A stretch of 64,000 bases of DNA from Escherichia coli (GTDB lineage Bacteria; Pseudomonadota; Gammaproteobacteria; Enterobacterales; Enterobacteriaceae), in NCBI RefSeq assembly GCF_030013205.1, contig NZ_CP122648.1; one strand, 5' to 3'. The notes below the pieces were generated by a model that worked only from the letters and a program-made list of their open reading frames with translations, did not search any database and had not been told where the DNA came from. Made by a program: the position numbers and the translations under genes. Positions 59,466 through 63,704 of this stretch are shown here, in pieces (position 1 is the stretch's first letter; every line of letters starts with the position of its first letter).

Positions 59466-59749
59466 TACCGTTGTCTCTCTTCCAGGTTTACTCCTGATAG
59501 AAAGTCATCGGCACTTGACGGTAATTTCTTACGACCAAAAACCTCTTTGCGTCACATTTTTACAACAATTATGGCAGAGAAGAATAATGCCATTGGAATG
59601 AAGAGAGTAACGAATGATTAAACTGGCTAAACCGAATGACGAAAAATTCTGGAAAACAGCACGCAATTTCGTGAAGTGATTATTTTCGTCCCTAAGGAAA
59701 CCTCATAGGATGCCTGCGGGTGCCTGAGACTTTCTGTTTTCAGGCTAAC

Positions 59750-59805
59750 CGGGAATCAGAAAGACGAAGGCCCCGACCGATATTTCTATCAACCGAGGCC
59801 AACGA

Positions 59806-59815
<10 letters not shown>
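59750..59815 (-). ncRNA. sokB: Probable SokB antisense RNA region of the hokB/mokB/sokB type I TA locus (coordinates approximate)
   Basis: Inferred from the hok/sok architecture (antisense overlapping the mok start); not directly delimited. Confidence 0.3.
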
Positions 59816-60013
<198 letters not shown>

Positions 60014-60428: not shown

Positions 60429-60493
60429 CTTCCGATGTAGACCCGTATTCTTCGCCTGTACCACGGGTCGGTTTTAGTACAGGCGTTTTCTTT
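60429..60493 (+). ncRNA. rydC: Hfq-dependent small RNA RydC (about 65 nt) ending in an intrinsic terminator
   Basis: Sequence cttccgatgtagacccgtattcttcgcctgtaccacgggtcggttttagtacaggcgttttcttt recognised from memory as RydC; terminator hairpin cctgtac/gtacagg plus T-run; convergent with cybB. Confidence 0.6.
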
Positions 60494-60502
60494 AAATATC
60501 CT

Positions 60503-61033
60503 TCAGGAACGTTTACGCGGCATCATGCGTAGAAGTGTGTTGTCCTTCCAGAAATAGTGGTGTGCCAGTGCAGCCGCAGCGTGCAACCCGATGACAAAAT
60601 ATCCCAGATTCGCCAGCGTCTCATGCCACGACTTTAAGCTATCAACCCGTTCGAAATTGGCCTCTGATGCATAAGGCATCGTCATACCAAACGCAAACCA
60701 CGGGTTACCCCGGTTATACATCATCACCAAACCAATCACTGGCAGCGCAATAAACAGGAGATAGATCACCAAATGTCCCAAATGCGCCAGTCCCGTCATC
60801 ATCGGTTTTGGCTTAGGTATAATCGGCGGGGTTGGGTATTTCAGCCTTAACAAAAGACGAACCACCATCAGCACGAGAATTGATATGCCACAGGAAACAT
60901 GAATCATGTTGATGAGTGGTCGATCGCTACGTGGGAAGAAACCCCGAAACTCCATTGCGCAATACGCTGCGATAACCAGCAAAAAGACCAGCCAGTGAAT
61001 GCTGATTTGTAACCTTGAGTATTTATTTTCCAT
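60503..61033 (-). CDS. cybB: Cytochrome b561 CybB (176 aa)
   Basis: Start at internal ATG 61033 (MENKYSRLQISIHWLVF...). Confidence 0.9.
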   Translation of the reverse strand: MENKYSRLQISIHWLVFLLVIAAYCAMEFRGFFPRSDRPLINMIHVSCGISILVLMVVRLLLRLKYPTPPIIPKPKPMMTGLAHLGHLVIYLLFIALPVIGLVMMYNRGNPWFAFGMTMPYASEANFERVDSLKSWHETLANLGYFVIGLHAAAALAHHYFWKDNTLLRMMPRKRS

Positions 61034-61221
61034 AACATTTCCTGCTTTAAAACAATTTTCCGTTAACATAACGAGCTTTTCTTAAAATTTCATTAAATAT
61101 TGTTCACCCGTTTTCAGTACGTTACGTTTCACTGTAAGAATGGAGATTGCCCATCCCACAATCCTGGGCTAAGCCTGGAAAGGATCAATTTTCATCCGAA
61201 CGTTCCTGACAGGAGAAAACC

Positions 61222-62223
61222 ATGAGTAAAGTTGGTATTAACGGTTTTGGTCGTATCGGTCGACTGGTGTTGCGTCGATTACTTGAAGTCAAAAGCAACA
61301 TAGACGTTGTCGCTATTAATGATCTCACTTCCCCAAAAATTCTCGCCTACCTGCTGAAACATGATTCAAACTACGGACCGTTCCCCTGGAGCGTTGATTT
61401 TACGGAAGATTCACTTATCGTTGATGGAAAAAGCATCGCGGTTTACGCCGAAAAAGAGGCTAAAAATATTCCGTGGAAAGCGAAAGGCGCAGAAATCATT
61501 GTCGAATGTACTGGCTTTTATACCTCCGCCGAGAAATCGCAGGCGCATCTTGATGCTGGTGCGAAGAAGGTGTTGATTTCCGCCCCTGCCGGTGAAATGA
61601 AAACCATCGTTTATAACGTCAATGACGACACACTGGATGGCAACGACACCATTGTTTCCGTGGCGTCATGCACCACTAATTGTCTTGCACCGATGGCCAA
61701 AGCCTTGCACGACAGTTTCGGAATAGAAGTCGGCACGATGACGACCATTCATGCCTATACCGGCACTCAGTCACTGGTGGATGGCCCGCGTGGTAAAGAT
61801 CTACGCGCTTCACGTGCAGCGGCAGAAAATATCATTCCCCACACTACGGGGGCGGCAAAAGCCATTGGTCTGGTGATCCCAGAACTGAGCGGCAAACTGA
61901 AAGGTCATGCACAACGCGTACCCGTGAAAACCGGTTCGGTGACTGAACTGGTGTCTATTCTTGGAAAAAAAGTGACTGCCGAAGAGGTGAACAACGCGCT
62001 TAAAAACGCGACAAACAATAACGAGTCATTTGGTTATACCGATGAAGAAATAGTCTCTTCTGATATCATAGGCAGCCATTTCGGGTCGGTGTTTGATGCC
62101 ACGCAAACCGAAATTACCGCCGTGGGCGATTTACAACTGGTGAAAACGGTCGCCTGGTACGATAACGAATATGGCTTCGTCACACAGCTCATTCGCACCC
62201 TCGAAAAATTCGCTAAACTCTGA
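61222..62223 (+). CDS. gapC: Intact glyceraldehyde-3-phosphate dehydrogenase GapC (333 aa); this gene is a split pseudogene in K-12
   Basis: Uninterrupted ORF with NAD-binding GFGRIGR and catalytic SCTTNC motifs. Confidence 0.88.
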
Positions 62224-62264
62224 CGCACACAGGCGGAGGAAAAAACCTCCGCCTCTTTCACTCA

Positions 62265-63704
62265 TTACGACTGTAAATAAACCACCTGGGTCTGCAGGTA
62301 TTCATGCAGGCCATGTTTGCCATCTGCGCCGCCAATACCGGATTTACGCCATCCGGCGTGGAATCCTTGCATAGCTTCGAAGTTTTCACGGTTGAAGTAA
62401 GTTTCACCAAACTTCAGCCCTTTAATGGCTTTCATCGCGACGTTCAGATTTTGGGTATAGATTGATGAGGTCAGGCCGTAATCACTGTCATTAGCCATTG
62501 CGATAGCATCTTCCAGCGTGTCAAATGCGACCACCGGCAGAACCGGGCCAAAGGTTTCCTCATGCATAATCGACATTTCCTGGCGAACATCCAGCAGCAA
62601 TGTCGGCGGATAATAATATCCTTTCCCCTCTACTGCTTTTCCACCCAACGCCACTCTCGCCCCTTCTTCTACTGCGCGCGCCACTTTTTGCTCGACCCTT
62701 TCCAGCGCCGCGGCGTTAATCAACGGCCCCATCGCAATGTCGTTGCGTTCAACGGGGTTACCAAATTGCACCGCCTGCATCGCTTCACCCAGCCGATTGA
62801 CAAACTGATCATAAATGCCTTTCTGTACATAAACACGTTCTGCACAGTTACACACTTGCCCACTATTAATGACGCGTGAATCAACGATGGCTTTGACTGC
62901 CAGTTCAAGATCGGCATCGTCCATTACGATAGCCGGTGCTTTACCCCCCAGTTCCAGGCACACTTTGGTGATGTTTTTCGCCGCAGTCGCCATAATCTTT
63001 TCACCTGCAGAGACGCTGCCTGTCATACTGACCATTGCGACCTTTGGGTTACCCGCCAGTTCTTGCCCAACGGTTTCACCACGCCCCAGAACAAGGTTAA
63101 ACACGCCGCGCGGAAGGCCTATTTCATCGACGATTTTGGCGAATGCAATCGCATTGTTTGGCGTAAATTCACTGGGTTTAATGACGATGGTATTACCGGT
63201 CAAAAGAGCGGGAGCCATTTTGCGGGCAATGAGGAAGAACGGGAAGTTCCACGGCAGAATGCCGGTAGTCACGCCAAGCGCACGTTTAAACAGAAGAATA
63301 TTTTCTCCTGGACGATCGCTTTGAATAATCTCGCCTTCATAACGCCGTGCCCACTCCGCCATGTAATCGATATAGTCCGCAGTAAAAGCCACTTCGACTT
63401 CAGCCAGCTGCTGGATCTTACCCCCTTCTTCAACAATCAGCGTACTGATTTCACTGGCGCGTTTGCGGATCCCGGCGGAGATTTTGCGCAACCAACTGGC
63501 GCGTTCAATAGCAGGCAACGCTTCCCATTCTGGTTGTGCACGTTCTGCTGCATCGATTGCCTTACGGGCATCCTCGGCCTGACCATCGGGAATGCGGGAA
63601 ATGACAGCCTCTGTAGCAGGGTTTACCACATCAATCCATGCGTCTCCACGCCAGGTAACAAACTGTCCATCAATATACATAGGATGTTGAACGGGTACTG
63701 ACAT
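62265..63704 (-). CDS. aldA: Lactaldehyde dehydrogenase AldA (479 aa)
   Basis: ORF translation; aldehyde dehydrogenase motifs. Confidence 0.92.
   Translation of the reverse strand: MSVPVQHPMYIDGQFVTWRGDAWIDVVNPATEAVISRIPDGQAEDARKAIDAAERAQPEWEALPAIERASWLRKISAGIRKRASEISTLIVEEGGKIQQLAEVEVAFTADYIDYMAEWARRYEGEIIQSDRPGENILLFKRALGVTTGILPWNFPFFLIARKMAPALLTGNTIVIKPSEFTPNNAIAFAKIVDEIGLPRGVFNLVLGRGETVGQELAGNPKVAMVSMTGSVSAGEKIMATAAKNITKVCLELGGKAPAIVMDDADLELAVKAIVDSRVINSGQVCNCAERVYVQKGIYDQFVNRLGEAMQAVQFGNPVERNDIAMGPLINAAALERVEQKVARAVEEGARVALGGKAVEGKGYYYPPTLLLDVRQEMSIMHEETFGPVLPVVAFDTLEDAIAMANDSDYGLTSSIYTQNLNVAMKAIKGLKFGETYFNRENFEAMQGFHAGWRKSGIGGADGKHGLHEYLQTQVVYLQS

Follow-up and report, generated by a model that had tools for sequence, protein, structure and literature searches.

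An intact gapC reading frame between cybB and aldA in a non-K-12 Escherichia coli genome

The gapC gene and its surroundings

The window, the whole stretch of DNA that was analysed, comprises 64,000 nucleotides of an Escherichia coli chromosome. Close to its end lies gapC, a gene for a type I NAD-dependent phosphorylating glyceraldehyde-3-phosphate dehydrogenase (GAPDH). Its coding sequence (61222..62223, forward strand) starts with ATG and runs through 333 codons to a TGA, uninterrupted in the open reading frame (ORF) listing of the window. The gene is flanked on one side by the divergent cybB, encoding cytochrome b561 / superoxide oxidase (60503..61033, reverse strand), and on the other by the convergent aldA, encoding aldehyde dehydrogenase A (62265..63704, reverse strand), both placed by the ORF listing and annotation. 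This is the locus that the gapC pseudogene b4493 occupies in K-12 MG1655 (NC_000913.3 1489713-1490713). In identical genomes the gene is annotated as ‘gap, type I GAPDH’ (WP_001578301.1).

The original prediction held that gapC is intact here as a 333-aa ORF, and the ORF listing and a codon-level alignment agree with it: set alongside the K-12 gene and six further E. coli alleles, the window gene shows neither an in-frame stop nor a frameshift. The comparison with K-12 gapC had been proposed as a way of exposing a hidden frameshift, and none came to light.

The product carries both GAPDH domains at full length and above the gathering scores (Gp_dh_N PF00044, E 7e-36, 123 bits; Gp_dh_C PF02800, E 4e-58, 195.8 bits). 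It scores 446.8 bits on the NCBIfam model for type I GAPDH (TIGR01534, EC 1.2.1.12), where the cut-off is 367.2, far beyond chance. The NAD-binding and catalytic-cysteine motifs that had been predicted are indeed there. The former consists of a GxGxxG motif (G8/G10/G13) followed by Asp34, the acidic residue that favours NAD; the latter is SCTTNC, in which the catalytic Cys150 is encoded by TGC at 61669..61671 (forward strand). The catalytic His177 is encoded by CAT at 61750..61752 (forward strand). Read from the sequence, all of these align with the crystal structure 7C5F. More specialised models are not reached: the GapA-type model (NF011954 / PRK15425) gives 301.1 bits where its cut-off is 662, and the scores are 280.3 against 539 and 277.5 against 530.55 for the Epd models NF010058 and TIGR01532, and 306.8 against 450 for the ArsJ-associated GAPDH model NF033735, and the adjacent genes are cybB and aldA, with no arsJ next to gapC. 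Judged by sequence, the protein belongs to type I GAPDH, and within that family it is orthologous to E. coli GapC.

The gene is preceded by a Shine-Dalgarno element, AGGAG (61211..61215, forward strand), which lies 6 nt before the ATG and is identical across six E. coli lineages. The presumed gapC promoter would lie in the divergent cybB–gapC intergenic region (61034..61210). Over the six lineages, the 188-nt intergenic region has a mean column identity of 98%, and the region upstream of gapC is conserved beyond the level of synonymous sites. A simple promoter scan finds no sigma-70 consensus match upstream of gapC, which is compatible with the rpoS dependence of gapC transcription reported in K-12 derivatives (PMC2759082). 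Transcripts of gapC have also been reported in EPEC, where they are decreased in a csrA mutant (PMC6333774). At the other end, the gap between the convergent genes holds a GC-rich hairpin (62231..62254) with a 9-bp stem, GGCGGAGGA/UCCUCCGCC, and the loop AAAAAC. Its folding energy is -18.3 kcal/mol (z = -5.2 relative to shuffled sequences). The terminator scan leaves this hairpin unlisted because it narrowly misses the T-tract rule, having no strong T-tract; it is likely to be a terminator common to both genes.

Two small RNAs lie upstream of cybB as they do in K-12: RydC at 60429-60492 (92.5 bits) and, at 59718-59869, the sok antitoxin RNA belonging to hokB/sokB (113.8 bits).

Ancestry of the locus and strain background

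Pairwise Nei-Gojobori comparison of six intact alleles (those of the window, Nissle, O157:H7, O111:H8, ATCC 8739 and 980-2) gives dN/dS ratios of 0.01-0.06 at dS values of up to 0.21, and the ratio reaches 0.07 once frame-repaired K-12-type alleles enter the comparison. This shows that intact gapC alleles have been under strong, long-standing purifying selection. Orthologues of GapC extend well beyond the species: amino acid identity is 97% in E. albertii and 87-90% in Citrobacter, Klebsiella (the oxytoca/grimontii group), Trabulsiella, Enterobacter and others. The gene order is kept as well, with cybB-gapC-aldA-ydcF-hrpA in Citrobacter and gapC-aldA-ydcF in Klebsiella. Since both genera carry gapC at the same locus, the intact gene represents the ancestral state.

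A review calls gapC a ‘laterally acquired gene’ (PMC1796617). Recent acquisition finds no support here: the GC content of gapC (48.1%) matches that of its neighbours (47.8-51%), and synteny at the locus extends to Citrobacter and Klebsiella.

The window allele differs by 3-5% at the DNA level from most E. coli alleles. It is 95.2% identical to that of O157:H7, to which synonymous divergence reaches 0.21, and 96.7% identical to that of Nissle, whereas it is 100% identical to that of CFSAN018748; no more than 303 genomes match it at 99% identity or above. Divergence from K-12 is 3.9% for gapC and 2.2-2.5% for cybB, aldA and trg. The idea that the gene is an imported outlier can be discarded, as it stands only moderately above its flanks and the surrounding 25-kb stretch is itself rare: over 39001-64000, only 18 complete genomes reach 99% identity. 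The 3-5% divergence is therefore mostly a property of the lineage and not an event specific to gapC.

That lineage is a porcine one. The whole window differs by one base in 64,000 from the porcine ETEC4079 (NZ_CP122643.1 2623729-2687728; pig faeces, Belgium), and several further porcine ETEC and O139:H1 genomes match its last 25 kb (39001-64000) at an identity that rounds, at one decimal, to 100%. The background had been predicted to be other than K-12, and so it is: the window is 96-98% identical to K-12 and a single base away from ETEC4079.

The supporting observations offered with that prediction stand up too. The yddL porin is a complete 366-aa Porin_1 ORF (21855-22955, 448.6 bits); K-12 keeps only the first ~290 nt of yddL because it lacks window positions 22139-23670. 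The leucine-rich repeat (LRR) genes, said to be full-length, are two uninterrupted ORFs of 421 aa (23119-24384) and 430 aa (24407-25699; annotated from 24446, 417 aa). K-12 lacks 24003-24643, so its yddK region fuses sequence of the one to sequence of the other. IS609 (insQ/ydcM), described as absent, has a precise empty site at 48773/48774, which corresponds to K-12 1503161-1504908. This insertion is not specific to K-12, given that BL21(DE3) also carries IS609/insQ between ydcL and ydcO. The further statement that several K-12 pseudogenes are functional in this strain holds for the integrity of the ORFs; function itself is presumed, save for GapC, where it draws on the biochemistry of a 99.4%-identical protein. 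The window strain is no pristine ancestor: it has lesions of its own that K-12 lacks.

Elsewhere in the window, ydcO is split into 47546-47911 and 47950-48774; it is intact in K-12, where its last 4 nt lie within the end of IS609, and ‘frameshifted’ in the ETEC4079 annotation. The narZ gene is truncated at ~30298 and followed by a small ORF (30383-30748) and an IS91-family transposase (30748-31935), after which comes a 5'-truncated pqqU/yncD (32119-33399). Relative to CFSAN018748, ~25 kb are missing at narZ/pqqU, namely the remainder of narZ and everything up to and including yncE, with yddE, nhoA, pptA, the rhs/vgrG cluster and ansP among the losses. The ABC transporter permease gene ydcV (38807-38929) is a 114-nt remnant, with ~670 bp missing relative to CFSAN018748. 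For the first LRR ORF, PGAP calls only a 288-nt ‘incomplete’ fragment (23716-24003) in a near-identical RefSeq genome.

Loss of gapC in K-12 and in natural isolates

The K-12 pseudogene was reportedly described by Hidalgo et al. in 1996 and by Espinosa-Urgel and Kolter in 1998. Aligned with the window gene, to which it is 96.1% identical at the nucleotide level, it differs by 38 substitutions and one indel, and its two lesions can be placed precisely. Codon 39, AAA (Lys) in the window (61336..61338, forward strand), is TAA in K-12, and the A7 run in codons 248-250, encoding G-K-K (61965..61971, forward strand), is shortened to A6, which shifts the frame. K-12 gapC further carries R18G. The window allele has neither R18G, the K39 stop nor A6.

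How common these lesions are can be estimated from complete E. coli genomes, 5417 of 5426 of which contain gapC DNA in a nucleotide search. The alleles were counted with short queries in which each 28-nt megablast seed is forced across the diagnostic base, so that all counts are lower bounds. The intact codon 39 (AAA) is found in at least 3881 of the 5426 genomes, the K-12 stop (TAA) in at least 1155 (at least 21%) and the A6 frameshift in at least 1050; ~380 genomes are left unclassified by these queries because of SNPs nearby. In a spread sample of 39 genomes, 31 (~80%) have a full-length match of 1002 nt, and the other eight have one of 1001 nt, consistent with the allele counts. The gene is thus disrupted in K-12 and in roughly one in five sequenced strains, and whole in most others.

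Around two thirds of the stop carriers sampled are natural isolates; their sources are humans, pigs, cattle, poultry, a duck, pork and river water. Isolates from river, dog, pig and poultry are among the carriers of the stop or the frameshift. Two strains are particularly informative. In the river-water strain KFu023 the allele, annotated ‘frameshifted; internal stop’, matches that of K-12 exactly. In the pet-dog strain T28R, gapC is 1002 nt long and has the internal stop only. As natural isolates carry the K-12 lesions, the lesions arose in nature and not during laboratory passage; as T28R has the stop without the frameshift, the stop arose first and the frameshift later. Both the natural origin of the lesions and their order are essentially shown, and the notion that they are laboratory artefacts can be dismissed on the strength of KFu023 and T28R. 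A passage in one paper (PMC2949598), which cites Espinosa-Urgel & Kolter 1998, states that environmental isolates have an intact gapC and laboratory strains a truncated one, and names fresh water as the setting in which gapC is preferentially expressed. The origin of the lesions in nature refines the statement in that passage.

Independent gapC lesions are found in other lineages. In a raw-milk isolate (NZ_CP144926.1), an IS1A-associated deletion has taken out four-fifths of gapC from its 3' side, together with the 3' end of aldA. The AIEC strain LF82 (protein P0038) has a 19-residue in-frame deletion in GapC just before the catalytic cysteine. BL21(DE3) (NC_012971.2) retains an intact gapC ORF, with an IS1A copy between it and cybB, where the promoter is presumed to lie. 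In the O111:H8 strain 7-15 45A, aldA is annotated as frameshifted and the adjoining gapC is intact.

Several database entries of 383 aa (P0002-P0005 and P0007) might be mistaken for proteins with alternative starts. They are instead C-terminal variants, in which a frameshift ~4 codons before the stop adds an extension of ~50 aa across the terminator region. These products may be real variants or assembly errors; P0002 has the window-type N262/N265 allele.

GapC as a second GAPDH

The feature is, with high confidence, the intact ancestral gapC, encoding the second (‘prokaryote-type’) GAPDH of E. coli, on a chromosome of the porcine ETEC / O139:H1 type. Its product is a paralogue of GapA and probably serves as an auxiliary, condition-specific isoenzyme. 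In catalysis, Cys150 would attack glyceraldehyde-3-phosphate (G3P), His177 would assist hydride transfer to NAD+, and phosphate would cleave the thioacyl intermediate to yield 1,3-bisphosphoglycerate; for the window protein, this activity and mechanism are predicted from published work on a protein 99.4% identical to it. The gene would be monocistronic, with transcription starting in the conserved stretch between cybB and gapC; it has a strong ribosome-binding site, and its transcript would end at the hairpin common to the convergent aldA. In K-12 and its natural relatives, gapC was lost through a nonsense mutation and a subsequent 1-bp deletion. For the window strain we infer the promoter, the terminator, the expression and the physiological role of gapC.

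An intact ORF may nevertheless be cryptic: barely expressed, redundant with GapA and simply waiting for its first disabling mutation. Such a gene would explain why the promoter scan returns no sigma-70 consensus, why E. coli has lost gapC repeatedly (the K39* clade, making up at least 21% of complete genomes, the IS1 deletion and the in-frame deletion of LF82) and why BL21(DE3) tolerates an IS1 between cybB and gapC. It would not be expected, however, to show a dN/dS of 0.01-0.07 at dS up to 0.21, the mark of long-standing purifying selection, or to be kept together with its locus across genera behind an upstream region more conserved than synonymous sites, and transcripts have been reported in EPEC and in K-12 derivatives. 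A cryptic gapC is accordingly unlikely. Counting against the main reading, a large natural clade does without gapC, and separate losses have occurred elsewhere (the IS1 deletion, LF82); its contribution to fitness is therefore conditional.

It is very improbable that the primary substrate or role of GapC is a different one, whether as an Epd/GapB-like erythrose-4-phosphate (E4P) dehydrogenase or as an ArsJ-coupled GAPDH in arsenate detoxification. The protein does register on the corresponding models (280 bits on NF010058 and 307 bits on NF033735), but both scores fall far short of the curated cut-offs (539 and 450) while the general type I model is passed; there is no arsJ neighbour, and the near-identical enzyme uses G3P and NAD+ as substrates. 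The remaining concern is technical. The K-12 frameshift lies in a homopolymer, a classic site of sequencing errors, and an error of assembly or reading in the A7 run might in principle mask the same frameshift here. Yet the identical 1002-nt gene is present in the independently sequenced CFSAN018748, ETEC4079 and several ETEC and O139:H1 strains, and 31 of the 39 genomes in the spread sample have the 1002-nt full-length match, which makes an artefact the least credible of these readings.

An intact gapC is in itself already known: the K-12 pseudogene has been described, and the protein has a UniProt entry, crystal structures and a measured activity. The gene is also in use as a species marker for qPCR. 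That E. coli has an intact gapC by default matters little for genome annotation, and it is K-12 that is the exception at gapC, at yddL/yddK and at the IS609 site. Metabolic models based on K-12 leave out a second GAPDH encoded by most strains. The modest addition made here is the population count, according to which the K-12 lesions are common to about one fifth of complete genomes, natural isolates included; it corrects the common reading of these lesions as products of laboratory passage. The physiological role of GapC is a minor question. One tentative proposal, which we hold to be possible but less probable than not, is that GapC is a niche-specific GAPDH for life outside the gut or for slow-growth, RpoS-type conditions, and that its loss by K39* and then frameshift is natural and clade-defining in the K-12-related lineage. 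If so, one may speculate that the presence or absence of a functional gapC would mark an ecological split in E. coli.

Among known systems, the closest is the crystallised E. coli enzyme EcGAPDH1 (PDB 7C5F-7C5R, 7C7K), which is of the same length as the window GapC, shares 331 of its 333 residues and has the same Cys150/His177 pair. The two proteins differ at positions 262 and 265, N262 and N265 in the window GapC and Q262 and T265 in EcGAPDH1, which lie outside the catalytic motifs checked. The crystallised sequence is that of WP_000048667.1, found in BL21(DE3), ATCC 8739 and the O111:H8 strain. EcGAPDH1, 99.4% identical to the window GapC, is an active NAD-dependent GAPDH with a KM for G3P of 0.73 mM; its C150A variant is inactive, the activities of C150S and H177A are down 10^3-10^4-fold (~8000-fold for H177A), and its structures include the thioacyl intermediate (PMC8615399). 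The intact GapC of O157:H7 is represented by UniProt P58072 (PMC10614358).

GapA (b1779), the main glycolytic GAPDH, has the fold family, the SCTTNC motif and the reaction of the window GapC, but is only 46% identical to it; in a search of the PDB, a different set of GAPDHs from bacteria (482-415 bits) comes nearer to the window GapC than the GapA-like entries do. The erythrose-4-phosphate dehydrogenase Epd/GapB likewise belongs to the GAPDH superfamily and is similar in length, although the window GapC stays below the Epd model cut-offs and is not a member of that family. The K-12 gapC (b4493; formerly gapC_1/gapC_2) sits at the orthologous cybB/aldA locus, and it is set apart from the window gene by the change of K39 to a stop, the A7 to A6 frameshift and R18G.
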